DNA of 64,000 nucleotides from Psammoneis japonica (GCA_008632985.1 QPGO01000004.1:868001-932000); one strand, 5' to 3'. Shown: positions 2,699 to 57,690, counted from the first letter of the stretch. The notes: generated by a model from the sequence alone, not told the origin. Translations and numbers: made by a program.

Positions 2699-3868
2699 CT
2701 ATTCGTCTCTGGTTGTTTCAGACGTCGGAAGCTGAGTCCATCGATTTTGCTTGTCCTTTGTCTTGATCAGCGCAACGATCACACCAAGCAATGTCAGACC
2801 AGTAACTGCGATGACCGCGGAGCTCATAGCTACTCCATCATGTCGCCTTCCAGGGGTTGGCAGCGACTTGCTTCTCTCGTCTCCAGGACTCAAACAGAAT
2901 CTTCCCAGATACCTCCCATCAGATGGACAGGAACACGCCTTCAAATCGGACGACCAAGTGCCTTGATTTATGGAACACGCGTTGCTGGCAAAAAAGTCTG
3001 CAATTTGATCAGTCATTGGAAATGCCTTTTCAAAGGATGGACTGTTGAAATGCCGCCCATGGTCATGAGTGCAAAAGGTTGTGTTGGCTACGCATCCGAT
3101 TCCGGTTTTGCAAGTTATACCATTGACCTTGTCTTCTAGACTGAGACGAACGCCACCGCTGCACTTGTTGATTTCAGTTGCCCAATTCTCAAACGCGTGC
3201 GTTGCAGAAGTACATTGATCAGCATGATTTGATATTTCACAGCAGCATCGAGGCATGGTTGAGTCGGTACAACACCCGGTGAATCGAACGTATGGGTCAT
3301 CCAAGCTATGATGCATAAAGAGAGCAGTAGGACGAGAGACGGAAGGTTGATAGTCATGACCGGATATAGGAGCTACGGCTCGAAATAGTTCGGCAGCGTG
3401 CGTCGCAAAGTATCCTCCATTTGACCATCCCATAGCATAAGCGATGTCCTTTGACACAAAACTAAATTCGTTTGAGACTTCGTCAATTGTTTGTCGGAGA
3501 AACCCAACGTCATCCACGCCTTGTTCAAGTGCGTAGCCACAGCAATATCCAGCGTTCCAGGAGCGTTGTATACCTTTTGGAATAACAAGAACAAACGAAA
3601 ACTGTTCCGCTACTTGCATCCAATGCTTCATCTGCTGAGGATCGCATCCAAAACAATGGAGTGCAAAAACAAGAGGGAGAACGTCGTGCTGATTCTCCTC
3701 TTGGTGGCAAATCGAAGTCGGTACATACAGCGAGTAGGAACGTTCACAATCCTTTTCTGACGTGCAGCCTGACATTGAAAGTTGCCGCAGCACTTCTTGA
3801 CCGCAGTATTCTCCAACCGGAAGACGCCGACCTGGCATTATCACTCTCACTCCGTCACTGCTTCTCAT
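2699..3868 (-). CDS. Alpha/beta-hydrolase, PHB-depolymerase/LpqC-like esterase with a Cys-rich segment and C-terminal membrane anchor
   Basis: PLVFALHC, SWNAGYCCG, DDVGFL and nucleophile elbow GWSNGG; the start may lie further upstream. Confidence 0.85.
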   Translation of the reverse strand: MRSSDGVRVIMPGRRLPVGEYCGQEVLRQLSMSGCTSEKDCERSYSLYVPTSICHQEENQHDVLPLVFALHCFGCDPQQMKHWMQVAEQFSFVLVIPKGIQRSWNAGYCCGYALEQGVDDVGFLRQTIDEVSNEFSFVSKDIAYAMGWSNGGYFATHAAELFRAVAPISGHDYQPSVSRPTALFMHHSLDDPYVRFTGCCTDSTMPRCCCEISNHADQCTSATHAFENWATEINKCSGGVRLSLEDKVNGITCKTGIGCVANTTFCTHDHGRHFNSPSFEKAFPMTDQIADFFASNACSINQGTWSSDLKACSCPSDGRYLGRFCLSPGDERSKSLPTPGRRHDGVAMSSAVIAVTGLTLLGVIVALIKTKDKQNRWTQLPTSETTRDE

Positions 3869-4322
3869 AGTTAATCATTTATGTACGGGGTAGCCTATCT
3901 ACTCTCTAGCTAGAAGGCGTCGCTCCGCCCCCATTATCGTCGACTGCATACCGTATAATACCTCGGCAATAATGCGAGGCATCACACCGCCGCCGTGCCT
4001 CAGTACAAATTGGACGTTGAATTCTACACGGCTTTGGATGCAGTTTTGACGTGCTGATGACAGATACAGCACATCTGTGCTGTGCACTGTGCACTCACGT
4101 AGAATCAGTACTGGCGCCTACAGAGCATACTATAGACCGAAGTACACGTCACGCGTGGTCGTGGGTAGTCGTGGTATTGATCGTACCTGGTCGTACTTGT
4201 AGTCGTAGAAAAGCAACGGAGGCACTGCCGCTCACCAGAATTGAGAGTCGCTCGTCGAAACGCGAACGAGTGAAGCACGGCGCGATACCACTGTAGACAA
4301 TGATGAACAACGCTATGTATTT

Positions 4323-6554
4323 CTATGTATTGGTAAGTCCTGTCCTCTTACAGTTTTGCCATATCGAATGTAGGCTTGTGATTGACACCCTTGTTGCACG
4401 TCCTGAACTTTGACAGGGGCCCAGAATTCTCTTGCAAAAAACAATCAACCTTGCCGTCGTAGCAGTCGTCAAGGCACTGTACGACCCTAGGGCTCGATAT
4501 GCAAAGCTTTTGATAGGATCTTCCAAGGACTTACCGGCGCGCACCTGATCTTTCACGTCCTGGCATGCATCCACAAATACCTGAACCTTGGTAGCAGCGT
4601 CCTTGGTGGATTTAAATTCAGATTGGTAGTCACGATCAAACTGTACGACGGTATCACCTGTGGACTTGGTTTTTTTGGTGTTCCTTTCATCTTGAGCTGG
4701 GTCAGTAGCAGCTCGCTTCTCCCTTGCACTGTTGGTATTGGTGAGTACTTCAAAAGTTGTAGACTGTGCAGCACGCACTCTTTCTGCAGCCGACTTGTCG
4801 TGCATTCGCATCACCACCTCTGCCTTGCTAGATCCAAGCTCACGAATCAAGAACTGCTTCATTTCTTCTTCATCAGACAAGTCCGGGGTGTATGATGTAG
4901 CTTTTGTGAACAGCTGCTTGACAGTCAATAAGTTGCTCTGCTGCACACCAAGCAGTTCCGTCACGTACCAATCAGCAAGTTCTGGTAGAGGCTTGCGGTA
5001 CCTGGCAGAGTCTACCATGACGGATGCAAATGAAGAAAGATGCTTCATATGGATGGGCTCCCATTTACCAACACGGTGAGCATCCTTGTCCTTTTCCCTA
5101 TCAACTAGAGCCTTCAGTGTACCACTGTCAGAAAGGTAAGTCGCGGTACTTGATATATTCTTGTGACGAGCGCTCAGCAATATGTTCGCTTCGGCCATCT
5201 CACCCAGCCGCCCTCCGCCACGCGTAGAGCCCCATTCAGCAAACGCAAAGCCAGTCCTTCGAAGAATGTGTGTTCCAATGATTTCAGTTGACATCTTATC
5301 AATGTCTCTTCCCAGAATGGTTTCGCAAGCAAACTTGAAAAAATCCAGGAGCGAGTCGTATGGAAAATTTTCGTCGTGATGTTCCTTGTTGAGCTCCAAC
5401 TCGTCTCTAGTGGGAAACAACTTGCCCGACTTGATGCCGGAATAATGCATCCAAAGGAGAATAGCAATAGTTCCTGAGAATTCAGGACATTCTTCATCGT
5501 CCCAAATCATGAAATGAAGATCCTTCTCGTCACGCTTGCCACGGATTTTGGTGCAGAGACCCTTGACGGCATTTTCCGACACTTGGAAGTACTCGGTGAC
5601 AAACTTTTCAACCGTCATCTCCAAAACTTCTTCACAGCGTAGAAATAACTTTGTACCAACAATAATGATAGTCCAAAGCATTAGATGATACTTGTCATTA
5701 TGTGACAAACAGTAGTCTCGAATAGCCCGCACCTCGCCAGGCAAGAATGCAAAAGCACTTCTAGCTTCGTAGTAGTTTGATGCGTAGTCTTGCCATTGGT
5801 CAATTGCAGCCTTGAAATCTTCATGTTTGGTGGTGTTTCCACGACGCCAGAAATGGGGATCACCAGGGTGTTTGCGGCATCCAGTGCCCTTTCGGGCTTC
5901 CTCCTCGCCAATCTCATGACAAGCAGTGCACATTTCTCGGTATTCGCCATTGGTCGTTTCGTAGTGCTTGTGAAGCTTGCTCATGGCAGTGCGGAAGAGC
6001 CCAATGGAAGAATGACCTTTCCAATCACCAATGCAGGTGATAGGGTTTCCATACCGGTCCTTTACAGGAGCGTTCGTGCGGTTGTGAAGTAGTGGTTCGC
6101 CTTTTTGTTTTGTCCTGAACTGAGTAAACTGGATTGCTGTATCCAAATTCGAAGGAAAAGGATCTGATGGACACAAGTCACGTGCCGGCAGCATGGCACT
6201 TTCAGAATCATCAATCAGGTAGCAGAAGTCACGAAAAAGCCTCCATATGGGTTCATACCGTGCAATAGAACTAGTCGCAACAGCGTCAGTGCCTACTTCG
6301 CCGGTCTTTTTGTTCTTTCCTGTAATTGCAAGTTTTGGTGACGTTGTGTCAAGCTTGTACTTCTTCAGTGTCTTATTCAAGCTCGACTCACCAAGAGAGC
6401 GGGTTTGCTGCGTTATTTTGAATCCGCCGCCCTTCAAAATAACGTAAGATGTCATCGTCGAGTGTGTGTTTTCTCTCTCGCGAACGAGAAATGCGAGTTT
6501 TTGATGATTTTCTTTTGGCGCGCCCCTCGAGTTTTCGAATGACCTTTTGGACAA
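4323..6554 (-). CDS. Tyrosine recombinase, Crypton-type
   Basis: Catalytic residues in the expected order: LFLRCEE (R), IRGKRD (K), GTHILRRTG (HxxR), SARH (H), TATYL (Y). N-terminal CxxC...CxxH cluster. Probable frameshift near 4490: another frame reads RVVQCLDDCYDGKVDCF...KFRTC and stops at 4348. Confidence 0.88.
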   Translation of the reverse strand: MSKRSFENSRGAPKENHQKLAFLVRERENTHSTMTSYVILKGGGFKITQQTRSLGESSLNKTLKKYKLDTTSPKLAITGKNKKTGEVGTDAVATSSIARYEPIWRLFRDFCYLIDDSESAMLPARDLCPSDPFPSNLDTAIQFTQFRTKQKGEPLLHNRTNAPVKDRYGNPITCIGDWKGHSSIGLFRTAMSKLHKHYETTNGEYREMCTACHEIGEEEARKGTGCRKHPGDPHFWRRGNTTKHEDFKAAIDQWQDYASNYYEARSAFAFLPGEVRAIRDYCLSHNDKYHLMLWTIIIVGTKLFLRCEEVLEMTVEKFVTEYFQVSENAVKGLCTKIRGKRDEKDLHFMIWDDEECPEFSGTIAILLWMHYSGIKSGKLFPTRDELELNKEHHDENFPYDSLLDFFKFACETILGRDIDKMSTEIIGTHILRRTGFAFAEWGSTRGGGRLGEMAEANILLSARHKNISSTATYLSDSGTLKALVDREKDKDAHRVGKWEPIHMKHLSSFASVMVDSARYRKPLPELADWYVTELLGVQQSNLLTVKQLFTKATSYTPDLSDEEEMKQFLIRELGSSKAEVVMRMHDKSAAERVRAAQSTTFEVLTNTNSAREKRAATDPAQDERNTKKTKSTGDTVVQFDRDYQSEFKSTKDAATKVQVFVDACQDVKDQVRAGKSLEDPIKSFAYRALGSYSALTTATTARLIVFCKRILGPCQSSGRATRVSITSLHSIWQNCKRTGLTNT

Positions 6555-6692
6555 AGCTACTTAGGGACGAAAGAAAGTCAAAAATTACTTATCAGTGCAC
6601 CGCTGTGCACCGGAAACTATGCCAGTGCACTTGAAGTGCACCGCCCCCTTCAACTAAGCACACGTCACTATCTCAAAATATCACCCCCCGGC

Positions 6693-9600
6693 TCGAGGGA
6701 GGATTAGGAATGGCGCTACGAGAGCCAATCAGAATTCAGCATTTGGGATTTCTACTTATAGGGGGCCCTCGGAAAGTCGAGGACTTTCCGACTAATTAAT
6801 TACATTTTTTCGGAAAATCTGACGCAATCATTTTAGACGAGGAGGCTGAGACAACTCTCCAAAATCAGACACAAGAATCAAAATGATGCGGAGACCGAAA
6901 TCATCTTCTTTTCGCGCCACGGAAAAACACAACAACACAGACTTCTGTCGCGATGAGAAAAATTCTCTCACAAAAAAAAACCCACGAGAGAGAAAAGTAC
7001 AATCTCTACTGGTGCTTCGATGATGACCGACGTTGAAGAAGAATCAGCTCCACTAAAAGTGGCTACACAGCAGCAGCTGCATCCTTTCTTTATCAACATG
7101 GGCATTCAATCCCAGAAGCGCAAAGGCTCCATTAAAACGAGCAAAAGTCAAGCGCAGACACGTAGAAGCGCACGCAACAGAGCGATTTAAGTGGGCGCAA
7201 GGTGCCAAGAGTAGACGACGGAACAAAGAAATGCAAGAGGTGTGAGAATGGGCCTACATACCATCATGGTCACGATCCCACGTGCAAGTTTTCGAAAAGA
7301 TACATGCAAATCAATGTCACCGCGGCTACGAAAGATGCAGAGCGACGGGAAAAAGAGCTCCATGAAAAGAACAATACGATCCCAGCCGCCCCACAGAAAG
7401 GAGTTTCTACCATGGAAGACCATTTTGAAATTAAAGAATCAAACAGTCGAGCTCCATTGCCTCCTCCCGGTGATTCAAACTTTTGCAAGCCGTGAATCTG
7501 GGAGCGTCCAGTTCTACCGTCGCAAGCAACCCGAATCTTTTTGATGCCGCAAGGAATACAAAATTCTCGGTTGAGACGTTGAAAAAAGAGATTCGAGCAC
7601 GAGTGAAAAAGTATGAGAACTCGGAGGAGAAGACAAAGTGCCCGGCTGCAGTGAGTGCTCTTATCAGTTATCTGTTGGATTCTGTCAAGCCCAGATTTGA
7701 TCAGGGCAGCAACACGCATCCTGTTGCTACAGCAAAAAGCACTAAGCTCAAAGAGATTCTGGAGGTCAAGGATGGTACCTTTCCGCCTGGTACAATATCG
7801 TTTCAAGTTCCCAAGGATGACTGCACTTCACCGCCTGATTATTACTACCACCAGCTGCAGGGTATGATAATATACATCGTTTGTTGGGAGCTGAATTGTC
7901 CTAACATCTACATTTCCTGCATTGACGGAGAGTGTGACGGGGAGATGATTCATGACCGTATGGACTTTACTCGATGCGGTGGGGCGACGCCAACATGTTG
8001 CATCAGCGGTAAGACTCATGTGGCAGTGTCAATGTGGTATGAGTGCAACAAATGCAAGACGCGATGCAAGGGCAACGACGGTCGACTGCTACACAAGTTA
8101 CCAAAAAGCCTTCAATCATCGTATCCAACTGAGCCAAAGTGTGCCAGTGCAACCAACAAATGGCACCTTACAAGGGAAACCACAAGGCCATTTGAATCCT
8201 TTCTTGTCACGCACGCAAACGGCGATAAGTTTTCTCACACGCTACACCAGATGCGAGCTGCCATTTCGAGGATCTCCAGAAAGAGATTGTCAACGAGCCA
8301 ACGATGAATCAGGTGACTGGATGTCTTTCTACGAGTGGATTGGCAGCTGCAGTCCATCAGGTTCTGCGATTCTTGATCTTCATGATGAATCTGGCGCATC
8401 GGAATTGACAGCTCTTGATACGTCATCATACTCCAGATGTACAAGATTGATCCAGATGGTGGGAGCGTCAATGAGCGTGGCTTCTGACCACACTTTTCAA
8501 ATTCTCAAGAATTGTACAAAGAAAGGTGGTGGAGCGGCGGCAGGACCATTTGCTATGTGCAACGAAAAGGGACAGGTTGGAGTTGCTTGTCTGACACCGA
8601 CGTTGGAAGCAAAAGATTTTGCTCACGCAGCCGAGCAGTTCGCGAGGCGAAAGAACGTGCGTCCAAAAATCCATTGCAGCGACACTTGGCCGAACAAGTC
8701 ATCGTCATGGAAGGTGTCATTTGGAGGTTACACAGTGTGCCGTTTGGGTCTCTTTCACTGGATGCACCGCATTGCACAGACACTTCGAAAAGACCACGTC
8801 GACTGTCATCAAGCAGTTCGGGACCTTCGAGCTACAGTTTCATACACCGAGTGGTCGGACCGCCAAGCAGCAATGCAAGCCCTCAAGGATGGAACTCTCA
8901 ATGGCAAAAAGCACACGGATGCAGAAATAGATGAGATCATCCATTCTTCCAGGTGGAAGCACTGCTCAGAATACATGCGCATTTGGAGGCATCCGCTGGA
9001 AAAGAGAATCAGCTTGCTTGACGATTGGCACGCCCGACACAAGTGTACGGCTTCTGATGGATCGCGACCCGCTGGGGGACGTCTTGATCCAAACAGTGGT
9101 TTGACACTCTTTACAAGTGATACAAAGGATGCCGTGGCAAATGGAAGAGAAACATCCAAGGGATTGGACGTTCCAGTGCCAAAGTCAGAGCAGTACTGGC
9201 CAGTGGCTCCATCGCTCCGTTCAAGAGCGAAGCTGGTGAAGTGGCGGACATTACTCGGGCCGGAGTCAAAGTTGGAAAAGGCTCATGATTCGCTGGCTCA
9301 TTATGGGAACTGTGGGATGCGAGATTCATTGATGGATTTGATCACTCTGGAAGGTTTGGTTCTCTACAACGCTGCAATTGAAGAAAAGGAACGCGTTGAA
9401 CGAATGAATCCAGAGACTCGAGCAAAGATTCCATGCGATTTTCGGGGTGTGGTTACTCATCGGAACGTGCTCAATCTAATCGAAATCAACAAGCTAGCAA
9501 CAAAGAAGGGGAAGAAAGCGCCCTGTCCAGATGCAAGGGAACTCGAGGCGGACACCGGCGAGCGTTTTCTGTCCAAGTGCCTGCGGGAGCAGAATGCTAG

Positions 9601-11466
9601 AAATGAAACAATTGCTCCACACCCGGAGACGGATCGATGCATGTGCAATGTCTGTGGGACAAAGCCAGTGACAAATCCATACAAGCGAACAACAAGATCA
9701 GTTGTTGGAAACGGCAACGATGGAGAAACTACAGCAGTGGCAAGCGTTCGACCGGCTGGTGGTTTTGTGGAAATTGTGGCGGCTCCTCAGGTGGGGGTTG
9801 AATCTATGTGTGTGAATGACACACCATTGCTTAACGTGGCTCACGTTCGAGTCGAGGAGCAGTTCAACATGTTGCAAGCCGTGAGAAGCGCCCTGTCACA
9901 ACAAGTTGCCATTGCATCGAGCATGAGCGCATCCCTCCCATCTGTTCCATGTCAAGTGCAACCGGCTCTTTCAAATCTTAATGATCTGATGCGGGATCAG
10001 AGGAAGCAAGACATTGATCCATGCTGTTGTCCTGTCTTCCTACAATGCAAGCTGCAGCAAAGCTGCAGTGTGACGGGGTGCCAACCAAGAGGTCGACCAG
10101 TGCATTCTATGGATTGCCCAAAGAGACAGCAGTCAAGGAGGTAGATGTCATCATTGCTGGGCACACTTCATGTGTTGCTGCTTTTGTTGACATTCTCGTG
10201 AGACAGCTGCCACTCGTAGAAGCGATCTAGCCTAGAGACGCACAGCAGTGTTTTCGAAACAGAGCTGAGTTTCCATGAGTTGTGAATTCACTGTTTTGTT
10301 TCTTATCCACCACACTTCCACAACTGTTGGTTGTTGTGTCCTCCACACACTTCATCACAATGCCACACTCAAGTGCCACCTTTCAAGGGCAGGTGAACCC
10401 TGTCGAAACGGAGATTCGGGTCTGCGGCGGTTGAAGGCACTCCCGTCCTTGGAAGCACCAGTCAACGCCTCACCGGGGGGCAACCCCTTGGCTCTCGTTG
10501 GCCGTCTCAATGTTCAGAGGTGGGGCCACATGAACATTGTTGCAGAAAAAAATTGCCGAGGCGCTGCTGCAGTCAGCAACCTCGGCAGTAGCCCGTGTTG
10601 TTCAAAGACGAGGGCAACCTCGTCTGCCGCTCACACACGGACTTTTCCAAAAGTGGTGGATTGTAGATTGCCAGCCAAAACAAACCACACCCACAACCAA
10701 CATGTGACATCCATTCCATCATATCCCGGTCAACAGCGCTTGTGGTGCCGCCGCACTCAGCAATTCCAATGAACCCTGAAAAGCCACCACTCCAACAACT
10801 TCTAAAGCCTCGTCAACGAAGGGTGAACACTCGGCTGAAGCCAAAAAGGCAACAATACAAAGCATCAGCATGAGAGACGCCATGAATGATCAATGCTTAA
10901 AGGAGGGCTCTTCAATCTGTCAAGAACGAACAGAAATTGCAACGCAAGAGCGGTGAGAGACGAGTTCAAAAAATGGAAAAAGTGCCAAGCATTTCTCATC
11001 CATTTTTCACGTTTTTCATACATCTCTTTTCGTACATTCATTCATCAGAGAGAGTTTTAATGCGTGCTTTGTTGTCACAACAGCATCACAAGTGACGGCG
11101 ACAATTTCGACTGCCGGCTCTTGCAGCTCTCATGGTCGATTTTTTGTGTGGTGTCGGAGGGAAACTCCTGAATTGCGTAGATTTCTACGTAAAATTCACA
11201 CTAGAGATACTTCAACACTGCAATGTCTCGATCTGTGTCACCACACCAAATTACTTCAACATGGGAGCACCCGGAGATCTGACACATCGGGTGGTGAAAC
11301 GGGAGAAAGAATTGACGATGGCTCTTCAAACCACTTCTGCCTTTTAGATCAAGCTCGCTGCCCTCGCAACCCCTTCCTCTCTCCTTCCTTTCTCTCCTCC
11401 TCCTCCTTCTTTCTCCTCTCCCCTCCCCCCCTCTCTTGGAGTCACTAACCCCCCCAAAATCCGTCT
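6693..11466 (+). repeat. Copy 1 of a ~4.77-kb head-to-tail tandem unit
   Basis: Starts tcgagggaggattaggaatgg and ends in a pyrimidine tract plus ggagtcact; colinear with 11467-16225. Confidence 0.97.
6953..10144 (+). pseudogene. DDE-transposase-like ORF, copy 1 (frameshifted, many Tyr->Cys/His changes)
   Basis: Same protein as copy 2, but split over several frames (7202-7495, 7483-8307, 7952-10144). Confidence 0.8.
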
Positions 11467-14400
11467 TCGAGGGAGGATTAGGAATGGCGCTACGAGAGCC
11501 AATCAGAATTCAGCATTTGGGATTTCTACTTATAGGGGGCCCTCGGAAAGTCGAGGACTTTCCGACTAATTAATTAACATTTTTTCGGAAAATCTGACGC
11601 AATCATTTATAGACGAGGAGGCTGAGACAACTCTCCAAAATCAGACACAAGAATCAAAATGATGCGGAGACCGAAATCATCTTCTTTTCGCGCCACGGAA
11701 AAACACAACAACACAGACTTCTGTCGCGATGAGAAAAATTCTCTCACAAAAAAAACCCACGAGAGAGAAAAGTACAATCTCTACTGGTGCTTCGATGATG
11801 ACCGACGTTGAAGAAGAATCAGCTCCACTAAAAGTGGCTACACAGCAGCAGCTGCATCCTTTCTTTATCAACATGGGCATTCAATCCCAGAAGCGCAAAG
11901 GCTCCATTAAAACGAGCAAAAGTCAAGCGCAGACACGTAAGAAGCGCACGCAACAGAGCGACTCAAGTGGGCGCAAGGTGCCAAGAGTAGACGACGGAAC
12001 AAAGAAATGCAAGAGGTGTGAGAATGGGCCTGCATGCCATCATGGTCACGATCCCACGTGCAAGTTTTCGAAACGATACATGCAAATCAATGTCACCGCG
12101 GCTACGAAAGATGCAGAGCGACGGGAAAAAGAGCTCCATGAAAAGAACAATACGATCCCAGCCGCCCCACAGAAAGGAGTTTCTACCATGGAAGACCATT
12201 TTGAAATTAAAGAATCAAACAGTCGAGCTCCATTGCCTCCTCCCGGTGATTCAAACTTTTGCAAGCCCGTGAATCTGGGAGCGTCCAGTTCTACCGTCGC
12301 AAGCAACCCGAATCTTTTTGATGCCGCAAGGAATACAAAATTCTCGGTTGAGACGTTGAAAAAAGAGATTCGAGCACGAGTGAAAAAGTATGAGAACTCG
12401 GAGGAGAAGACAAAGTGCCCGGCTGCAGTGAGTGCTCTTATCAGTTATCTGTTGGATTCTGTCAAGCCCAGATTTGATCAGGGCAGCAACACGCATCCTG
12501 TTGCTACAGCAAAAAGCACTGAGCTCAAAGAGATTCTGGAGGTCAAGGATGGTACCTTTCCGCCTGGTACAATATCGTTTCAAGTTCCCAAGGATGACTG
12601 CACTTCACCGCCTGATTATTACTACCACCAGCTGCAGGGTATGATAATATACATCGTTTGTTGGGAGCTGAATTGTCCTAACATCTACATTTCCTGTATT
12701 GACGGAGAGTGTGACGGGGAGATGATTCATGACCGTATGGACTTTACTCGATACGGTGGGGCGACGCCAATATATTGCATCAGCGGTAAGACTCATGTGG
12801 CAGTGTCAATGTGGTATGAGTGCAACAAATGCAAGACGCGATGCAAGGGCAACGACGGTCGACTGCTACACAAGTTACCAAAAAGCCTTCAATCATCGTA
12901 TCCAACTGAGCCAAAGTATGCCAGCGCAACCAACAAATGGCACCTTACAAGGGAAACCACAAGGCTATTTGAATCCTTTCTTGTCACGTACGCAAACGGC
13001 GATAAGTTTTCTCACACGCTACACCAGATGCGAGCTGCCTATTTCGAGGATCTCCAGAAAGAGTATTATCAACGAGCCAACGATGAATCAGGTGACTGGA
13101 TATCTTTCTACGAGTGGATTGGCAGCTACAGTCCATCAGGTTCTGCGATTCTTGATCTTTATGATGAATCTGGCGCATCGGAATTGACAGCTCTTGATAC
13201 GTCATCATACTCCAGATGTACAAGATTGATCCAGATGGTGGGAGCATCAATGAGCGTGGCTTCTGACCACACTTTTCAAATTCTCAAGAATTATACAAAG
13301 AAAGGTGGTGGAGCGGCGGCAGGACTATTTACTATGTGCAACGAAAAGGGACAGGTTGGAGTTGCTTGTCTGACACCGACGTTGGAAGCAAAAGATTTTG
13401 CTCACGCAGCCGAGCAGTTCGCGAGGCGAAAGAACGTGCGTCCAAAAATCCATTACAGCGACACTTGGCCGAATAAGTCATCGTTATGGAAGGTGTTATT
13501 TGGAGGTTACATAGTATGCCGTTTGGGTCTCTTTCACTGGATGCACCGTATTGTACAGACACTTCGAAAAGACCACGTCGACTATCATCAAGCAGTTCGG
13601 GACCTTCGAGCTACAGTTTCATACACCGAGTGGTCGGACCGCCAAGCAGTAATACAAGCCCTCAAGGATGGAACTCTCAATGGCAAAAAGCACACGGATG
13701 CAGAAATAGATGAGATCATCCATTCTTCCAGGTGGAAGCACTACTCAGAATACATGCGCATTTGGAGGCATCCGCTGGAAAAGAGAATCAGCTTGCTTGA
13801 CGATTGGCACGCCCGATATAAGTGTACGGCTTCTGATGGATCGCGACCCGCTGGGGGACGTCTTGATCCAAACAGTGGTTTGACACTCTTTACAAGTGAT
13901 ACAAAGGATGCCGTGGCAAATGGAAGAGAAACATCCAAGGGATTGGACGTTCCAGTGCCAAAGTCAGAGCAGTACTGGCCAGTGGCTCCATCGCTCCGTT
14001 CAAGAGCGAAGCTGGTGAAGTGGCGGACATTACTCGGGCCGGAGTCAAAGTTGGAAAAGGCTCATGATTCGCTGGCTCATTATGGAACTGTGGGATGCGA
14101 GATTCATTGATGGATTTGATCACTCTGGAAGGTTTGGTTCTCTACAACGCTACAATTGAAGAAAAGGAACGCGTTGAACGAATGAATCCAGAGACTCGAG
14201 CAAAGATTCCATACGATTTTCGGGGTGTGGTTACTCATCGGAACGTGCTCAATCTAATCGAAATCAACAAGCTAGCAACAAAGAAGGGGAAGAAAGCGCC
14301 CTATCCAGATGTAAGGGAACTCGAGGCGGACACCGGCGAGCGTTTTCTGTCCAAGTACCTGCGGGAGCAGAATGCTAGAAATGAAACAATTACTCCACAC

Positions 14401-16225
14401 CCGGAGACGGATCGATGTATGTGCAATATCTGTGGGACAAAGCCAGTGACAAATCCATACAAGCGAACAACAAGATCAGTTGTTGGAAACGGCAACGATG
14501 GAGAAACTACAGCAGTGGCAAGCGTTCGACCGGCTAGTGGTTTTGTGGAAATTGTGGCGGCTCCTCAGGTGGGGGTTGAATCTATGTGTGTGAATGACAC
14601 ACCATTACTTAACGCGGCTCACGTTCGAGTCGAGGAGCAGTTCAACATGTTGCAAGCCGTGAGAAGCGCCCTGTCACAACAAGTTGCCATTGCATCGAGC
14701 ATGAGCGCATCCCTCCCATCTGTTCCATATCAAGTGCAACCGGCTCTTTCAAATCTTAATGATCTGATACGGGATCAGAGGAAGCAAGACATTGATCCAT
14801 ACTGTTGTCCTGTCTTCCTACAATACAAGCTGCAGCAAAGCTACAGTGTGACGGGGTGCCGACCAAGAGGTCGACCAGCGCATTCTAAGGATTGCCCAAA
14901 GAGACAGCAGTCAAGGAGGTAGATGTTATCATTACTAGGCATACTTTATGTATTACTACTTTTGTTGACATTCTCGTGAGATAGCTACTACTCGTAGAAG
15001 CGATCTAGCCTAGAGACGCACAGTAGTGTTTTCGAAACAGAGCTGAGTTTCCATGAGTTACGAATTCACTATTTTATTTCTTATCTACCACACTTCTATA
15101 ACTATTGGTTGTTGTGTCCTCCACATACTTCATCACAATACCACACTCAAATACCACCTTTCAAGGGCAGGTGAACCCTATCGCAACGGAGATTCGGGTC
15201 TGCGGCGGTTGAAGGCACTCCCGTCCTTGGAAGCACCAGTCAACGCCTCACCGGGGGGCAACCCCTTGGCTCTCGTTGGCCGTCTCAATGTTCAGAGGTG
15301 GGGCCACATGAACATTATTGCAGAAAAAAAATTACCGAGGCGCTGCTGCAGTCAGCAACCTCGGCAGTAGCCCGTGTTATTTAAAGACGAGGGCAACCTC
15401 GTCTGCCGCTTATACACGGACTTTTCCAAAAGTGGTAGATTGTAGATTACCAGCCAAAACAAACCACACCCACAACCAACATGTGACATCCATTCCATCA
15501 TATCCCGGTCAACAGCGCTTGTGGTGCCGCCGCACTCAGCAATTCCAATGAACCCTGAAAAGCCACCACTCCAACAACTTCTAAAGCCTCGTCAACGAAG
15601 GGTGAACACTCGGCTGAAGCCAAAAAGGCAACAATACAAAGCATCAGCATGAGAGACGCCATGAATGATCAATGCTTAAAGGAGGGCTCTTCAATCTGTC
15701 AAGAACGAACAGAAATTGCAACGCAAGAGCGGTGAGAGACGAGTTCAAAAAATGGAAAAAGTACCAAGCATTTCTTATCCATTTTTCACGTTTTTCATAC
15801 ATCTCTTTTCGTATATTCATTCATCAGAGAGAGTTTTAATGCGTGCTTTGTTGTCACAACAGTATCACAAGTGACGGCGACAATTTCGACTACCGGCTCT
15901 TGCAGCTCTCATGGTCGATTTTTTGTGTGGTGTCGGAGGGAAACTCCTGAATTGCGTAGATTTCTACGTAAAATTCATACTAGAGATACTTCAACACTAC
16001 AATGTCTCGATCTGTGTCACCACACCAAATTACTTCAACATGGGAGCACCCGGAGATCTGACACATCGGGTGGTGAAACGGGAGAAAGAATTGACGATGG
16101 CTCTTCAAACCACTTCTGCCTTTTAGATCAAGCTCGCTGCCCTCGCAACCCCTTCCTCTCTCCTTCCTTTCTCTCCTCCTCCTCCTTCTTTCTCCTCTCC
16201 CCTCCCCCCCTCTCTTGGAGTCACT
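11467..16225 (+). repeat. Copy 2 of the ~4.77-kb tandem unit, ending at an assembly gap
   Basis: Starts tcgagggaggattaggaatgg at 11467; colinear with copy 1 up to the Ns at 16226. Confidence 0.97.
11729..14922 (+). CDS. ~1060-aa DDE-transposase-like protein (RNase H fold, Mutator-like motif order), copy 2, with one 1-bp frameshift near 14085
   Basis: Candidate triad SDHTF (D), YSDTWP (D), SKLEKAH (E), with LGLFHW between the second D and the E; CNEKGQV strand; Zn-binding clusters CKRC..H.H..C, CIDGEC..CNKC and a C-terminal CC..H..C. Confidence 0.7.
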
Positions 16226-16393
16226 NNNNNNNNNNNNNNCCCCTCTGGTGCACAGCAGTCAGCAGTCGCCATTTCATACCGTGTAGTGTGTTCAGGATTG
16301 CGTGTGAACAGCAACAACACCACTCCGCGTCTGAAACTGTTGTACTACTATTGAGCTTACTATTGACAATCTTGACTGAAAGAAGAAGTGGCA

Positions 16394-19300
16394 ATGTCTT
16401 CTGAAGATCCCGCTGAGGCGGCGCAACATCTCGCGACACAGAGCAACGTTGACGCTGTTTTTGCCGACCTGGAAGAACGGCATGTTGCCGTCGAAAAGGA
16501 GAGAGACGAGTTGCGGGAAAGAGCAGAATCTCTGGAGGGAGTTGTAAAGGAAATTCGGGCCGAACTATCTGCTCGAGATGATTCTCTTCGTTCGATGGAA
16601 TCCGAATTGGCCGCGGCCAAGCGAGAGAGACAGGTGTTCGAAGATACGGCGCTCACCTCTGAGGCCAGTCAAAAGACACAGCAAGAGCGTATGGATCGTA
16701 TGGAGGCGGAAGCAGATGCCCTCCGTGAAGAGATTACTCGCTTGACTGAGTCCAACAAGGAAATGGCGGCCAAGCTTGCCGAGGCGGACACCAAGAAGCT
16801 TTTGTCGTCTTCTGCAGCCATTCCGCTTCAGTACGAGCTAGAGCGGGCCCGAAAGGAACTCGACTCATTATCAGCCCATAACAAGTGGTTGGAAAGCGAG
16901 CTTACAGCCAAGAGCAATCAGCTCACTACGTGTAAAACGGATCATAGCAAGGAGATTATTGATTTAAGGTCCAAGCTCGACAAGGCCGTGGCAGACATGG
17001 AACTTGCGACTTCCCAAGAAGAAACGCTCGTGCGTACGCAAGAAGAACTTCAGGCCAAGGTGGAGCAGCTTTCCACTCAACTTTTCCAACAGAAGCAGGA
17101 GGCTACGGATAAGGCTCTTGCCAAAGAGGACGAGCTTGAGGCCGAGCGACGGCTGACCGCACTACAGAAGGAGCAGCTCGAGCGAATGGATCATCGCTAC
17201 AATGATGTCATCAGGCAGAACAAGCAAATGAAAGAGCTTGCTTCGCAAGCTGCCGCAGAGTCTCGGACAGAACGGGAACGAGTCCGGGAAGATCTTCTGA
17301 AAGAGTCCAAGGCGGCGCTTGAGCAGCAGGCTGAGGAATATGCTCAGAGAGTTGAAGAGCTGGAGAAGCAGCTCGAGGACTCGAATCGACGAAGGATCGA
17401 GGCCGAGGGCGGACTCTTGGCGTCCCCCCCATCTAGACGATCCCGTGCCTTGTTGCCACCCGAAAGGGATTCAGGAGAACGTCTACAAGGCGAACAGGAA
17501 CCTGTAGGTTTGACGGAGCTGTATGCCCGCTTGTCGGAGCGGGAGGATGAGCTGCGCGCAGAGACGATCGAGAGGCGTCGCCTCGAGCTCTACCAAGAAA
17601 AGATCATGGCTCAAATAGAAGCCCAGGCCCCTGTATTGCTGAGACAAAGACAAGAATACGATTTGGCCATGAAGAAACATCAAGAATTATCCGCTCGTCT
17701 CGAAGAGGCGTTTGATGAAACGGCGGCCGCCAAGACGGAAGCGTCAGACCTCCAACGCGAAAACTCTTCGTTACAGAAGAAGGTTGGCGAAATGGAACAA
17801 GAGAATATGGATCTCGCCAAGCAGGTCCAGCACTTGCTACAAAAAATCTCTGGCGACGGAGGAGCGTCCACCCAAGACACAGAAGGGGATGATGTTCCCG
17901 TGTTCGCTAATGTGGAAGAAATCCAGAAACAGAACCAACGTCTCTTGAAGGAACATCGTCGTCTCACAAACACTGTGGCCGAGTTGGAACAGAAGCTCGA
18001 GACGGAGCCTTTGCTGGTGCAATTGGAAGAGAAAAAGCAAGAATTGTCTACTCTTCGCCAAGATCAAAAGCGGCAGGAAACCCTTGTCGCGGGGATTGTG
18101 CAGCAGCGGGACCTCTACCGAGCTCTTCTCGCGAAGCACGATAGCAGCATCATCGAAGGCGGAGATGGTGCCGGTCCTACTGGCGATGATGCCACTGCTT
18201 TAATCCTTGCACAGCAAAAAGAAAAGACGAGGGAAGTTGAATCGAAGAATCGTCAATTGGAAGACGACTTAGCAAAGGTGAAAGCGGAGTCGAGCGCCGC
18301 GAATCTTGCCAAGGAGGCAGCGGAGGAGCGGCTTGCGAGATACGATGCACATTCACTGGAACTGACAAACTCGGTCGATAGGTTACAATCTCAGCTCTCA
18401 GCCGCCAATGCAGCGACTGCACGTAGCGACGCGGAGGCTTCTTATCACCGGGAGAAGTGTGTCAGACTTGAGGAAAGCCTCCAGCTCTCCCGTTCTGAGA
18501 CGACCCGAGCCAATGAGGCCAAGAGGGAAATGCAAAATGTCAACGCGGAATTGCAACAAGCAGTCGCCAAGGCGAATGCCGATGCCGGAAAATACGAGCA
18601 ACAGCCCGACAGGTGAGCGAAGTGAAGCGACGTTTGTTTCTTTTTTTAAAATACATTGCCACCATTGAATCTCACACCGTCCTTTGCGATTTTTATCAGG
18701 CTTCTATGAAACTTCGTCTTGCAGAAACACAGGTAGAGACGGCAAAGTCTGCTGAGGCACGCATTGCTCTCGAGACAAACTCGCTTCGTTCAGAGCTGGC
18801 ACGGCAGGGGGCTCTCCTAGATTCCGTGCAACGCATCGAAGCGAGCTTGTCAGCGAAGAATGAAGAAGATAAGAAGAAGCTTGCGGAAGATTTAGAACGG
18901 CTTTCGCAAGAGCTTGCTTCGGAAAAAGCAAAGAGTTCGGTTGAATTGGAGAACCATGTAAGCAGGGTTCGTGAGCTCGAAGCAACAATGAAAGAAACGG
19001 AGAAAAAGAAGGACGATGCAATGTCGGAGCTACTTCAGGCGAAGGAAAACGCTTTGAAAGTGACATCAGAGACGCAGGCGTTATCAGCAAAGTGCTCTCG
19101 ACTGGAGAGCGAGCTTCGTATTGCCAAGACGAAATTGGGAGAGGGAGATGTAGAGACCGAAGAAGAACAGACGATGCAGGCTCGGATTGAGGTCCTTACG
19201 GCTGAGCTTGACTCAACTCGGTCAGAAGTGACCGCCGCAAAGGAGCGAGTTACAATGTACCAGAACATCTCAAAGGAGAGCGAAGAAGCTCTCGCCGACC

Positions 19301-46882: not shown

Positions 46883-47858
46883 GGTTTTGGTTTGCAGTTT
46901 TTGCACCGCCTCGCACCTCTTTCACAGCCACAACATGGCGCTCAACGCGCGCTTTGAATTCCGCGCCCGTTTCACTTGGGACTGACGTTGCTGTGGTCCC
47001 GCCACCCTTTGCCATCTCTTTCCCCCGCATGCCTTTACCATCATCTCTCTCCGATCCGGCAGCTACTTCGATGCCTCCTGCTGCACCTCATGTCTCTCAT
47101 ACCTTCCGCTCTGCACAGGCACTCTTTACTCTCAGTAAAAAAATCCACAGATCAGATCATGATGAATGTGCGAATGATGCCAAAGAGATCACAATGCGTG
47201 GTCGTTGCAGGGGGTCTCTTTAGAATGGATGTCAGTGCCACGAAAAGATGCTGCACTGAAAGCATGTTGGTTCTGTGGTGTCTTTTCAGAGGGTGCATCA
47301 ACCCGGGTGTGCCATGCACTGAAGAAGGAGTGCAGGAGATGGAGTCACCAAAACATGAGTTGCTGCTCCAGCCCACGCACTTTGATGAACGGCTGTGTCT
47401 CACTGTCTTCATGAGCATCACATGAGGACATTGTGGTTGGCATCATTCATCAAAAATGTGCCATCATCTTAAATGAGCTGCTCTCAAGAAGGTGGGTGTC
47501 CACAGCTCTCTTGCTCTGCCCGCGTCCCTGCTGCCAAGAGACGAGGAGCTCGACAGCACATTTCTCACTTTTGTCAGCATCAACTTGATCACAGACCTCT
47601 TTGGCTTGACAGTGGTCTTTTGACAGTGCCCACTGATGTGGCCCAGCACAATTCACAGATGGGGCATCATCAACACTTTGAAACAAGCTTCAAAATCTTG
47701 TCCAGCCAACTCTTTTTTTGTCCTCTTCCACCTTCTTTGTGCGCAAAGCCTTCAAATGATGGCCAGCACACCTTTGCAACACCTGCTCAATGGCAAGGCA
47801 ACTGCAGAGCACAAAACAACAACGGACAATGAAGAAACTGCAAGTTCTTGAAGATGAG

Positions 47859-48664
47859 AAATGTCACAAAAACAATTGCTGCAGCACTGGCCAATGAGTG
47901 AAAGAGAAGCAACCACTTTGCAGTGCAAAAAGCACCATGTGAAAAAGAGAGCGGCTCTTCCCTTCACCAAACAAGAAAATCCCTCCCAACATTTTCCCCT
48001 TTCTGGCACCTGGCAGACCATCATCATGTGACAGCATGGCTTCAAACACACCCCCAACAGCTGTGCAGCCAGCATCAGAGGAGAACAAGTGCCTCTCCTT
48101 GGAGCTTGGAGAGTGTCCTTGCTGCCAAAATGTCACAAAAACAATTGCTGCAGCACTGGCCCATGAGTGAAAGAGAAGCAACCACTTTGCAGTGCAAAAA
48201 GCACCATGTGAAAAAGAGAGCGGCTCTTCCCTTCACCAAACAAGAAAATCCCTCCCAACATTTTCCCCTTTCTGGCACCTGGCAGACCATCATCATGTGG
48301 CAGCATGGCTTCAAACACACCCCCAACAGCTGTGCAGCCAGCATCAGAGGAGAACAAGTGCTTCTCCTTGGAGCTTGGAGAGTGTCCTTGCTGCCAAAAT
48401 GTCACAAAAACAATTGCTGCAGCACTGGCCAATGAGTGAAAGAGAAGCAACCACTTTGCAGTGCAAAAAGCACCATGTGAAAAAGAGAGCAGCTCTTCCC
48501 TTCACCAAACAAGAAAATCCCTCCCAACATTTTCCCCTTTCTGGCACCTGGCAGACCATCATCATGTGACAGCATGGCTTCAAACACACCCCCAACAGCT
48601 GTGCAGCCAGCATCAGAGGAGAACAAGTGCCTCTCCTTGGAGCTTGGAGAGTGTCCTTGCTGCC
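47859..48664. repeat. 269-bp tandem repeat, 3 near-identical copies
   Basis: aaatgtcacaaaaacaattgctgcagcactgg recurs at 47859, 48128 and 48397. Confidence 0.97.
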
Positions 48665-48768
48665 CCCCCCCCCCCAAGATCTGAAAGGAGCACAAAAAGT
48701 TGCCAGACAAAAAAAATGTTTTTCCTCTTGCTGACATTGCAAAAAGAAAAAGAGACCAAAAAGCAAGA

Positions 48769-49013
48769 TGACAGGATTTGAACAAGATTTTAGTTTGTCA
48801 CACACAATTGTGTGTGCTCTCAGTTCCACGCGCGTCGCGCGATGCAGTTTGCTTTCGAGCCACGCGGCTCACAAGAATGACAACAGCAGTGCTGATGTCA
48901 CGACACCAGTCTTTCGGCTCCTGCAATGGTCTCTGCATGGAGACTCATCTGCCATTTAGACAGCAGCAAGGAGTCATTGTTTTCTTCCACCCAGTCATCT
49001 TCGCTTGCTGTCA
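48769..49013 (+). repeat. 5' LTR (245 bp)
   Basis: Direct repeat of 54353-54599 with TG...CA ends. Confidence 0.95.
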
Positions 49014-50227
49014 GATCAACAGCCTTGCTCTTCATTGTCCACTGAGCATTCATCATCATCATCGAGAAATTTTTCGATGACGCGCACCGTTGGCGGTGGA
49101 AGCACACATCTACCTTCTTCACTGCTGGATGCTGGATTAAATCCACACATTTGGATTTATCCAATGCCTCCCATCGTTGGATGCATTTGTTCAACGTGTG
49201 TTTGTTTGACCAGGAATTCCCGAATTCTCAAGCATCTGAGATTCCAGATTCCTTGTGGCGGATCCTGCCAATCCATCCGCTCGTGTCCATGCGCACACGA
49301 TGCAAACCCTTGACTCTGGCCCTGCTCCACGCACACCAAGTCTGCCACCTTGCATCTGCGCTGGATTGCTGGTCTTCTACAGCCCTGCAAGGTCCACAAG
49401 GACAACTGTGAGAGGGACGCGTTCCAGCTCTGGGTGGGACCTTGCACTGCTGCACTGTGACATCAACAGTTTTTTGGATCACGTCGCATGTCGCGCACGC
49501 ACATTTCTGCGTGTTGCATTCTACGAAATTGTTTCATGCTCCCTGTTTTGTGAAGCCAAAGGCTTTCTATTTTCAACAGTTGTGAGAATGAAAATGTGCT
49601 GGGCATGTTCTTCAATGTCTGAAGAACACACCCGGGCAAACTGTCAATGATGTGCTGCAAGCATGGAGGAGGAGATGCATTCGTAAAATTGCCTCTTTTT
49701 CTGTTGGCAATCATTCATGTTTTCATTGCAGCAGGAATTTACTGCAGAGCTTGCACATGGAATTCTACGGGCCCAATGTCACACGGAGTCCCACCTGGGA
49801 CTGGAACCCATCGAGGAAGCAGTTCGTGATCACAGCCTGCGTTGGGGTGAGGGTGCATTTCCCATGTTTGTTCGTCCCTCCACAGCGCCAAATTTGGCCG
49901 GCCTGATCGGGTCACCCAACCGACATAAAATGAGAACGGTTCGGAGGTCTTGTCCACCTCTGGCCAGCTTGTCGGCAGGGGTTTTTAACCCGTTACTCCG
50001 CTCTCAGGCAACCCAAAGCATCGCCAGCTGCGGGTTCAGACGTGCCGGCACAACTCTACAGACCAGATGGGAAGCTTGGCACTTAACTACAAACAGGATG
50101 TCATGGCCCGGCGGCTTCTGACTCTTGAGACAGTTCAAGACATCAAGTCAAGATTCAAGTCAAGTTTCAAGTCATTTCAAGCTCACCCTCCGACTCTAGC
50201 TGGTTCCGACATTCACCCAGTTGCAAC

Positions 50228-53200: not shown

Positions 53201-54300
53201 CCGCTTTCAATGGTGGGAACCCATTTTCTGCCACCTGGATGATTCCGACTGGCCGCCCAAATCCCGTGAATTACGTGGTCGCTTCGTTGGCATCGCCGAA
53301 CACGTTGGTCACCAAATGATGTTTAAAATTCTTTCTGTCAACACTCAGAAGATTCTCTGCCATTCCAACGTGCGCTCCACCCATGATCCGTCTGCTCCAA
53401 ACCTGTGTCTTGATCCTCCTGACAAGAAATCTGCTGACCCTGTCATTAAATCCCGCCACGACTCCGAGAATTCGCCAGACTCACCAGATGGGGAGGCGAT
53501 CAGGATGCCCAAAATGCCGGTCTTTGACCCCGAGGATGTCATGGGATGCACCTTCCTCATGAAGCCACAAGAGGATGGACAACACCTCAGAGCCCGCATC
53601 GTCAAAGCCGTTGAGGACCATGACTGGAAAATCAGAGGCAATCCCGAACTGGTCAAGTTCATTTGCTCCATCAACAATGACGAATGCGAGGAAGTCCCAG
53701 CCTGCAATGACATCATGCACCACATTGAGCAAGAAGACGAGGACCCAACTCTCTGGAAGTTCCAACACATCGCATCGCATGAAGGACCATTGCGACCCCA
53801 TGATCTCTCTTGGAAAGGCTCAAGCTGCAACGTCATGCTCGAATGGGAGAATGGGGAGATCACGTCCGAACCCCTTGCCATCATTGCCAAGGATGACCCC
53901 ATCACCTGTGCCATCTACGCGCGTGAGCACAGCCTTCTAGAAACTGAAGGATGGAGATGTTTTTGCAAGACAGCACTTCGTCAGAAGAAGCCATTCCACA
54001 TGGCCAACCAAGCCAAGTTGTGCTCCTTTTGTGCTGCACCACGATGCAAGTGCGGGTGTGAAGTGCCACGGGACTACAAGCATGCCATGGCCCTTGATGA
54101 GCACAATGGCAACCACAAGTGGGGAGACGCAACGGACCTCGAGATGACTCAGCTTGATGAGTGCGAAGTCTTCCACGACTGCAGACACCACAAGGATTCC
54201 AGTGCTCCATTGGGACACAAGAAGATCCAGGTGCATCTCGTCTGTGATGTCAAACATGACGGACAGCACAAAGCAAGGCTTGTTGCCGATGGACACCTCA
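50228..54300 (+). pseudogene. Copia gag-pol pseudogene (RT truncated, no RNase H)
   Basis: Protease-like ALMDHGANGG, integrase-like LISDRAQ and QNFAEHRCQTVK, EWENGEITSEPL, RT start VHLVCDVKHDGQHKARLVADGHLT; stop at 50651 and a frameshift near 52875. Confidence 0.9.
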
Positions 54301-54352
54301 CAAAATCCGACTTCAAATCTGTCGCTGTTGACCCCTCAAGCAAACTGGGGAG

Positions 54353-54599
54353 TGACAGGATTTGAACAAGATTTTAGTTTGTCACACATGATCACATGTG
54401 CTCTCAGTTCCACACGCATCGCGCGATGCAGTTTGCTTTTGAGCCACACGGCTCACAAGAATGACAACAGCAGTGCCGACATCACAACACCAGTCTTTCG
54501 GCTCCTGTGACAGTCTCTGCGCATGGAGACTCATCTGCCATTTAGACAGCAGCAAGGAGTCATCATTTTCTTCCACCCAGTCATCTTCACTTGCTGTCA
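54353..54599 (+). repeat. 3' LTR (247 bp)
   Basis: Direct repeat of 48769-49013, preceded by the PPT and followed by the TSD. Confidence 0.95.
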
Positions 54600-57075: not shown

Positions 57076-57690
57076 TGTCAGGAACCCATCATCATTTTGT
57101 CCTTCTGTGGTGCAAAACAATGGCAGCTTGCAAGCAGCTGATGCTGCCTCTCTTCTTGTTCCCCAGCTCTCAATCTTGTCAGCAGCAGTGGTGGGCTCTT
57201 CTTGTTTTTCATTTCCTCCTCACCTGCTTGAAACACGTTTTTTGATCCAAGCACATTGACAGCCATCTGACAGATTTTGCCAACTCAACATTTCCCCACT
57301 CAGTGCCATCATGCCACCCTCTGCCTCCACATCATCTCATTCGGCATTTCATTTGGCAGCTTTTTTGGAGTCATGACAGTTTTGGAAACCCACACAAACA
57401 CCAAATCTGATGCATCAAAGGATTTTGTCAGGAGCTCATTGTCACCTTGTCTTTTTGCACTGCAAAACAATGGCAGCTTCAGCTGCTGGCACTGCTGCCA
57501 TTCTCTTCTCATTTCCCAACTCTCAATCTCATCAGTGGTGTGTGCTCTTGTTTTGCCTTTTCTCCTTGGTGCCCACTTGTGATTTTGCCAACTCAACATT
57601 TTCCCACTTTGGCGCCAATCTCCAGTGCACCATTGTGCCACTCTCTGTGTCTCTGCATCACCTTCTTTGGCAGCTTCTTTGGCTCTGTTG
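57076..57690. repeat. Old, diverged ~310-350-bp tandem duplication
   Basis: tgcaaaacaatggcagctt at 57111 and 57461; gattttgccaactcaacattt at 57273 and 57581. Confidence 0.8.

Follow-up and report, generated by a model that had tools for sequence, protein, structure and literature searches.

The 64-kb stretch of the Psammoneis japonica genome analysed here (referred to as the window; coordinates count from its first letter) contains, between a minus-strand and a plus-strand host gene, a 12.2-kb block (4082-16253) in which a putative Crypton-type tyrosine recombinase gene stands head-to-head with two tandem copies of a unit that encodes a predicted DDE transposase. The initial annotation had proposed that the block is either a single element carrying two integration chemistries on a shared promoter, or a DDE element inserted into the end of a Crypton. 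The two host genes that flank the block are divergent, as that annotation had it, and the space between them amounts to about 350 bp when both elements are left out. The limits given to the block, 4082 and 16253, coincide with GTGCAC hexamers. The features of the locus are listed below, where L001 to L004 are loci of related recombinases on metagenome contigs.

2699-3868, minus strand: left host gene, 389 amino acids, with a weak esterase/Peptidase_S9-like match
4082-4094, no strand: downstream GTGCAC pair of the recombinase element, GTGCAC-N1-GTGCAC, 7 bp apart, also in L001-L004
4348-6455, minus strand: putative Crypton-type tyrosine recombinase gene, catalytic R273, K307, H396, R399, H431 and Y440
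6595-6641, no strand: upstream array of four GTGCAC sites, spacings 10, 20 and 11 bp, also in L002 and L003
6662-6668, minus strand (the recombinase strand): GTGACGT box, invariant in the window, L002 and L003
6693-11446, plus strand: DDE unit, copy A, ATG at 6953, frame broken by several 1-bp indels
7920-11220, no strand: hypermutated tract within copy A, 81 of 139 TpA changed to TpG or CpA
11447-11466, no strand: spacer of 20 bp between copies A and B
11467-16225, plus strand: DDE unit, copy B, near the ancestral sequence, with four TpA to TpG/CpA changes at 11964-12521
11729-14922, plus strand: predicted DDE transposase gene of copy B, about 1064 codons, as 11729-14110 (793 amino acids) plus 14068-14922
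16226-16239, no strand: assembly gap of 14 N, immediately after copy B
16248-16253, no strand: lone GTGCAC, 8 bp past the gap
16394-18616, plus strand: right host gene, a nucleoprotein TPR-like coiled coil

Two predicted enzymes

The recombinase open reading frame occupies 4323-6560 of the minus strand, with 745 codons from stop to stop and 710 amino acids from the ATG at 6455. Homologues were sought by a word-indexed search, which gave 25 with 29-55% identity, most of them 700-770 amino acids long. In an alignment of 22 sequences (the window protein and 21 relatives), the catalytic residues R273, K307, H396, R430, H431 and Y440 are invariant and R399 is nearly so. Structure prediction with AlphaFold yielded a model with a predicted local distance difference test score (pLDDT) of 80.5, the best structural match of which is Cre recombinase, over both domains, with template modelling (TM) scores normalised to Cre of 0.64-0.70 and Foldseek E values from 5.5e-4. 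The complete R-K-HxxR-H-Y set that the initial annotation had read in this frame is thus borne out by both the alignment and the Cre-like model. The R-H-R-Y set typical of Crypton recombinases is present as R273, H396, R399 and Y440, accompanied by K307 and H431. No Pfam model matches the protein, and PDB sequence searches returned nothing relevant. Its nearest named ESM-Atlas clusters carry NDC10_II, GCR1_C, DUF3504 and Phage_integrase, and the members of one nearby cluster are mostly Bacillariophyta; these neighbours agree, as leads only, with a Crypton-type recombinase of a probable diatom. As assembled, the gene is disrupted by a 1-bp frameshift near 4490 (4488-4491), which displaces the final ~46 residues, a conserved stretch, from the frame. 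In the following frame the conserved C-terminus of the family can be read as far as a stop at 4348-4350, and the assembled frame stops at 4323. On the aligned residues and the modelled fold, the identification of this frame as a gene for a Crypton-type tyrosine recombinase holds.

The surroundings of the gene agree with this identification. Among the 29 open reading frames of at least 100 amino acids between 3500 and 17000, 28 were compared with Pfam (the remaining one contains N and was left out), and none of the 28 matches a reverse transcriptase, in accordance with the initial annotation, or any other kind of domain beyond the weak matches reported here. No inverted repeats were found within 3500-17500, and there are no long terminal repeats. 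The element therefore shares several features with Cryptons, and with the CryptonS group of DNA transposons described from oomycetes and Phaeodactylum tricornutum (Kojima and Jurka 2011, PMC3212892): its one gene is that of a tyrosine recombinase, reverse transcriptase and long terminal repeats are absent, the size is compact, and the host is probably of the stramenopile type. It also resembles CryptonS, as portrayed there, in a C-terminal extension that is conserved within the family and in nearest clusters with a Crypton/Ndc10-type domain. Unlike CryptonS, the majority of which have TATGG termini according to the same source, the element has candidate ends that lack TATGG, and its recombinase lacks a Pfam match; TATGG or CCATA occurs only inside the gene, at 5048, 5359, 6246, 4359, 6049 and 6243.

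The second protein belongs to a much larger group. An exhaustive HMMER search returned 811 cluster representatives at E ≤ 1e-3, 209 of them at 1e-30, typically 1000-1200 amino acids in length. Across 34 aligned family members D513 and D578 are invariant and E772 is nearly invariant, and two Cys/His clusters (C94/C97/H107/C111 and C323/C328/C365/C368) are conserved. In the predicted structure (pLDDT 78), D513 lies on the first strand (beta1) of an RNase-H-like sheet, D578 follows the fourth (beta4), and E772 begins the helix that follows a helical insertion domain. The D-D-E triad noted by the initial annotation is therefore sound, being conserved and placed on canonical RNase-H elements. The top Foldseek match of this model is the transposase of ISCth4 (IS256 family, PDB 6xg8), with an E value of 1.2e-4, and an exhaustive structural search aligned 327 residues spanning 287-793 with the same protein at a Z score of 10.2. 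Other structural matches are retroviral integrase cores (Z 8-10 over about 108 residues), Hermes (Z 7.3) and the P element (Z 6.7).

By sequence the family falls outside the coverage of Pfam transposase models. The Pfam models MULE and Transposase_mut match 0 of 34 family members, and the only Pfam match, weak and in 3 of 34, is to DUF6729; a PDB sequence search with the DDE protein gave nothing relevant. In line with Pfam, DUF6729 clusters in the ESM-Atlas stand at 0.92 to the DDE protein, and a literature search on DUF6729 turned up no paper. A relation to KDZ/Zisupton is a weak ESM-Atlas lead only (0.77-0.78), and a literature search for Zisupton in diatoms gave passing mentions only.

Like ISCth4 and the Mutator/MULE transposases, the modelled protein would have an RNase-H DDE core into which a helical domain is inserted, after the second D and before the E, and its zinc-binding clusters lie N-terminal of the core. 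Unlike IS256 transposases it is much longer, at about 1064 amino acids. Unlike Mutator/MULE, it has no Pfam MULE match, and its unit has no terminal inverted repeats that could be found and no clear 8-11-bp duplication at its flanks. The MULE superfamily is described as including members without terminal inverted repeats (Dupeyron et al. 2019, PMC6446971). Judged by its conserved residues and its predicted fold, the DDE protein is an RNase-H-fold transposase, probably of the IS256/Mutator kind, from a large eukaryotic family without annotation. Conserved residues and folds thus uphold the identities, Crypton-type recombinase and DDE transposase, given to the two genes by the initial annotation.

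A tandem duplication and a hypermutated tract

Repeat finding and BLAST reveal that the DDE unit, 4.77 kb in length, is present twice, head to tail, as copy A (6693-11446) and copy B (11467-16225), with 97.8% identity. This duplication, which ends at the N gap, was overlooked in the initial annotation, as were the frameshifts, the TpA tract in copy A and the distal location of the ~1060-codon frame. That annotation had placed a frame of about 1060 amino acids some 400 bp from the recombinase and divergent to it. The divergent orientation stands. The copy next to the recombinase is copy A, with its ATG at 6953, 498 bp from the recombinase ATG, and there the gene is split over several frames by 1-bp indels. 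The long reading of about 1064 codons exists in copy B only, 5.3 kb from the recombinase, where 793 amino acids can be read from the ATG at 11729 and a further 284 codons in a different frame, up to the stop at 14922. It requires that the frameshift near 14083, a 1-bp deletion relative to copy A, be read through. As assembled, the recombinase and copy B carry one 1-bp frameshift each, and the hypermutated copy A carries several. Short homopolymer runs account for most of the indels, and in two cases the T of a TpA inside the hypermutated tract has been lost.

The tandem could be an assembly artefact, in which two alleles or dispersed copies were stitched head to tail and one copy is real. Two features fit such an error, namely the N gap directly after copy B and the difference of only 2.2% between the copies. 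False duplications, however, usually have the gap between the copies, and here the junction from A to B, including the 20-bp spacer, is continuous sequence without N. A real tandem repeat moreover produces contig breaks exactly where a repeat unit ends, and an artefact is considered quite unlikely.

Some further observations concern the unit itself. The gap falls exactly at the end of copy B, at the point where copy A runs on with a run of C, and further copies of the unit beyond the gap (16226-16239) are possible. Each DDE unit contains, about 80 bp from its start and ahead of the transposase ATG, a palindrome with 10-bp arms (TCGGAAAGTC and GACTTTCCGA) and a 3-bp centre (at ~6769-6791 and 11543-11565), which, as a sequence feature, could be a binding or regulatory site. 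The left flank of copy A resembles the unit end with spacer ('GTCACTA...AAAAT'), but this resemblance was dismissed as chance, with 662 of 1000 shuffles scoring equally high.

The differences between the two copies are strongly patterned. There are 96 substitutions, among which 49 have G in A and A in B (47 of these after T), and 34 have C in A and T in B (all before A), such that 81 of the 96 are TpA in copy B and TpG or CpA in copy A. About five more differences are CpG in B and TpG or CpA in A. The changed sites are confined to a tract with sharp edges, 7920-11220 (counterpart in copy B, 12697-15999), in which 81 of 139 TpA are changed, as compared to 0 of 40 elsewhere in copy A. The observed/expected ratio of TA is 0.28 in the tract, 0.62 in the matching part of B and 0.60 in the recombinase element. 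Copy B has four TpA to TpG/CpA changes, located between 11964 and 12521.

The direction of change was set at the 27 non-synonymous A/B differences within the first 793 codons, using 33 homologues as an outgroup. The homologues favour the residue of B at 24 of the 27 sites and that of A at three (319 versus 18 residue matches), and from codon 342 on every polarised site favours B. Therefore, TpA is the ancestral state and copy A was changed to TpG/CpA. Repeat-induced point mutation (RIP) of Neurospora consists of dense C:G to T:A transitions in duplicated DNA, with C changed to T at CpA. A RIP-like change of CpA to TpA in copy B was the first reading of these differences, and was rejected given the ancestral TpA at 24 of 27 sites. 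The tract resembles RIP in that dense transitions are confined to duplicated DNA and involve the same dinucleotides, TpA versus CpA/TpG. It differs in that the direction is A:T to G:C, the reverse of a C to T change at CpA, and in that one copy has 81 changes and the other four.

A closer counterpart comes from Bigelowiella natans, in which integrated viral DNA is reported to undergo T/A to C/G hypermutation restricted to TpA (Mettrop et al., bioRxiv 10.64898/2026.01.13.699255). As in that report, so far as its account goes, the changes occur almost exclusively from TpA to TpG/CpA (81 of 96, all of these within 7920-11220), in a local tract of foreign or repeated DNA with untouched neighbours. 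The host is a different one, probably a diatom, and the target is a transposon copy instead of a viral insert. The evidence in the window is a fixed footprint between tandem copies, whereas the report on B. natans describes mutations observed in real time.

The tract also affects the reading of the protein. Within the first 793 codons, copy A differs from copy B by nine Tyr to Cys and three Tyr to His changes. The several zinc clusters claimed by the initial annotation stand insofar as Cys/His clusters are conserved in the family; some cysteines of copy A are mutational, and these changes may have inflated the count. Two 1-bp deletions in copy A, at 8262 and 8285 (13040 and 13064 in copy B), take away the T of a TpA within the tract and may be a by-product of the hypermutation or of its repair.

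Elsewhere in the window, a 14-kb domain (47000-61000) has TA observed/expected values of 0.0-0.2, TG+CA values of 1.5-2.1 and CpG down to 0.02-0.7. This depletion far exceeds that in copy A, and the domain presumably represents repeat DNA that was hypermutated long ago. A tblastn search detected neither a recombinase nor a DDE homologue in it.

GTGCAC arrays around the recombinase gene

Cryptons are notoriously hard to delimit. GTGCAC occurs 26 times in the window, and seven of these hexamers fall into three tight groups: 4082 and 4089; 6595, 6605, 6625 and 6636; and 16248. The four-site array lies 140-186 bp upstream of the recombinase ATG and the downstream pair about 253 bp beyond the conceptual recombinase stop. 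A metagenome scan with the recombinase alignment yielded eight loci, all on short contigs (1.2-3.3 kb), and relatives at 36-45% protein identity show the same site layout when read on the recombinase strand. In L002 and L003, four GTGCAC with a phasing of about 10 bp are located 156-301 bp upstream of the ATG, and the four-fold array is thus found in three of the four sequences that reach at least 190 bp upstream (the window, L002 and L003); L001 has just 47 bp before its ATG. All five sequences with a 3' region have the downstream pair, which takes the degenerate form GCGCAC/GTGCGC in L003 and L004; across L001, L002, L003 and L004 its distance from the stop is 257-466 bp. The GTGACGT box, found about 20-27 bp upstream of the array, does not vary among the three sequences that have it (again the window, L002 and L003). 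Three or more GTGCAC within 50 bp were obtained in 0 of 2000 shuffles of each sequence. The span from site to site is similar, at 2560 bp (window), about 2670 bp (L002) and 2975 bp (L003), and the conserved 5' region of the recombinase element ends at most ~10 bp from 6692, where copy A starts.

Because these non-coding motifs are conserved on both sides of the gene at such a level of protein divergence, the GTGCAC arrays are best explained, from sequence comparison, as recombinase sites that co-evolve with the enzyme. Arrays of this kind, palindromic hexamers with four upstream and two downstream, set the family apart from CryptonS as described; they were not found in the account of that group in Kojima and Jurka (2011, PMC3212892).

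Conserved motifs on both sides could alternatively be the promoter and terminator elements of a domesticated host gene. The homologues are uniform in length (~700-770 amino acids), have mostly open frames and form clusters with few members, as would befit a host gene, and Crypton recombinases are described as repeatedly domesticated (Kojima and Jurka 2011, PMC3212892). The domesticated DUF3504 proteins treated in that source, however, are without most of the catalytic set, which is kept in full here, and two-sided non-coding motifs at 36-45% protein identity fit co-evolving recombinase sites better than regulatory elements. A junction of the head-to-tail type in L002, contigs that end just past the sites and a frameshifted window copy also speak for a mobile element, and domestication appears very unlikely.

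The L002 contig is informative in this respect. It has a 168-bp direct repeat (1-168 versus 2750-2917, 98.8% identity) with the GTGCAC pair, so placed that a complete recombinase element has the pair at either side; the repeat puts a pair 82 bp upstream of the array, a configuration that resembles a junction as in a head-to-tail dimer or circle. The sequence common to both junctions extends 21 bp past the pair, which suggests that crossover would take place 14-21 bp beyond the pair, outside GTGCAC. Adjacent to this, at 2918-2970, is a short satellite with units of about 20 bp, each of which contains AATATTC, the last bases common to both junctions; AATATTC may be the crossover sequence. All four contigs that have the GTGCAC pair stop 38-150 bp past it. 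Such ends are expected from assembling a repeated element; transcripts are possible too. By analogy with the L002 junction, the 5' limit of the element in the window would lie within a few bases of 6692.

The lone GTGCAC at 16248 raises the possibility that the whole of 4082-16253 is one recombinase-bounded unit, in which the DDE element was inserted in the last ~60 bp of the Crypton, was duplicated there and is movable as cargo, with the hexamer at 16248 and the pair at 4082-4094 as the outer crossover sites. With 26 hexamers in 64 kb, the chance of finding one within about 10 bp of the gap, as this one is at 8 bp, is about 1 in 100. Once the tandem is removed, the 16248 site would be at least 59 bp from the array, as compared to 82 bp in L002. 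Joining the host flanks on one GTGCAC (4071-4087 with 16248-16263) would give a perfect palindrome of 14 bp, a plausible recombinase target, and terminal direct repeats of 4-6 bp are attributed to Cryptons (Kojima and Jurka 2011, PMC3212892). GTGCAC at 4082/4089 and at 16248 could be short terminal direct repeats of this kind, yet the 5' end could equally lie at about 6692. The 16248 site is, however, a single hexamer and not double like the other three, the 21 bp shared past the pair in L002 suggest a crossover outside GTGCAC, the palindrome and the lone site were noticed post hoc, neither a second copy nor a circle came to light, and all genes are frameshifted as assembled. A single recombinase-bounded unit is therefore considered unlikely.

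One element or two

The proposal of a single element by design, which would use both enzymes and transcribe them divergently from a shared promoter, is not without precedent. Composites of tyrosine recombinase and DDE transposase are known as MarCry-1_FO of Fusarium oxysporum and as Tec1/Tec2 of Euplotes, and MarCry-1_FO is described as having common 16-bp inverted termini and several near-identical copies (Kojima and Jurka 2011, PMC3212892). As in these elements, a tyrosine recombinase gene lies beside a DDE transposase gene in mobile DNA, and the head-to-head arrangement with 498 bp between the two ATGs would suit a shared promoter. In contrast to MarCry-1_FO as portrayed in that source, the block lacks common termini, each gene has relatives that occur without the other, and the DDE unit was duplicated alone.

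The recurrence of both genes within one pair of termini, as in a composite, is not what the relatives show. None of the eight metagenome recombinase loci carries a DDE homologue, and L002 and L003 have both of their arrays within 3 kb. Contigs of at most 3.7 kb hold 20 of the 25 recombinase homologues. DDE homologues are mostly found on short contigs of their own: four of the six full-length ones are on contigs of 3668-5091 bp, too short for a second gene of 2.1 kb, and the other two, on contigs of 5696 and 9423 bp, could hold one. No longer or fused recombinase proteins were found, which is weak evidence, and no relatives of either protein were found in the viral or prokaryotic contig collections scanned. 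Within the 64-kb window, no further copy of either gene was found. The duplicated unit excludes the recombinase gene, and its boundary at 6692/6693 splits the supposedly shared intergenic region. The DDE-free relatives, the short homologue contigs and the duplication of the DDE unit without the recombinase gene thus argue for two independent elements. The main result of this analysis is consequently a correction: the claim of a transposon with two chemistries and a shared promoter is not upheld, and a composite by design appears extremely improbable. The alternative offered by the initial annotation, insertion of a DDE element in or at a Crypton end, fits with a unit that starts at most ~10 bp from the end of the conserved 5' region and with the lone GTGCAC at 16248.

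The reading that we prefer, with a probability of roughly 0.7, is that the block consists of two unrelated selfish elements between host genes, where the DDE unit either borders on the 5' end of the Crypton or is nested in it, and that the locus is decaying. What is observed are the folds and catalytic residues, the conserved site arrays, the assembled duplication and the direction of mutation; we infer that the elements are mobile, what their sites do and in which order events took place, as follows. The first element (~4082-6692, 2.6 kb) would be a compact Crypton-type element in which probable recombination sites of its own, two GTGCAC doublets upstream and one downstream, enclose one Cre-like recombinase gene. 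Recombination of the upstream with the downstream site would yield an excised circle, which could re-integrate by a crossover at a short identical sequence. The second element, the 4.77-kb DDE unit, would have come to lie at the 5' end of the first, or within its last ~60 bp, and would then have been duplicated in tandem without the recombinase gene, after which copy A would have been struck by TpA to TpG/CpA hypermutation over 3.3 kb. Because all three gene copies are frameshifted as assembled, the locus looks like one in decay, as opposed to a working machine with two enzymes.

Several observations weigh against this reading. The frameshifts in homopolymer runs could be sequencing errors, in which case the genes are possibly intact. 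A search between the ends of the DDE unit found no terminal inverted repeats, and its flanks show no clear target-site duplication, such that the 4.77-kb unit is defined by its duplication only. L004 has no upstream array within its 204 bp upstream. The short metagenome contigs could be transcripts as opposed to whole elements, which would weaken the notion that the relatives are complete without a DDE gene. Finally, the GTGCAC 8 bp past the gap and the 14-bp palindrome, post hoc as they are, fit a single recombinase-bounded block from 4082 to 16253.

Under the reading of two elements, both are fresh members of already known kinds. The conserved site architecture, with four GTGCAC upstream and two downstream, provides concrete candidate recombinase-binding sites for a Crypton-type family. 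With 811 clusters that are unseen by Pfam transposase models, the DDE family is probably missed by the repeat annotation of marine protist genomes. The tandem copies, together with 33 outgroup proteins, offer a clean record, at a single site in a probable diatom, of TpA to TpG/CpA change, a process in print only for an unrelated alga. A more far-reaching proposal, tentative and rather doubtful, is that the editing of TpA to TpG/CpA is triggered by duplication (a 'reverse RIP') and that the GTGCAC at 4082 and 16248 make the 12-kb block a recombinase cargo. Bearing on such a trigger, the changes all lie inside the repeat copies (81 in A, four in B), and the single-copy Crypton and the host genes are untouched. 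If true, this would imply a cellular mechanism that recognises repeated DNA and alters A:T pairs along tracts of kilobase length.

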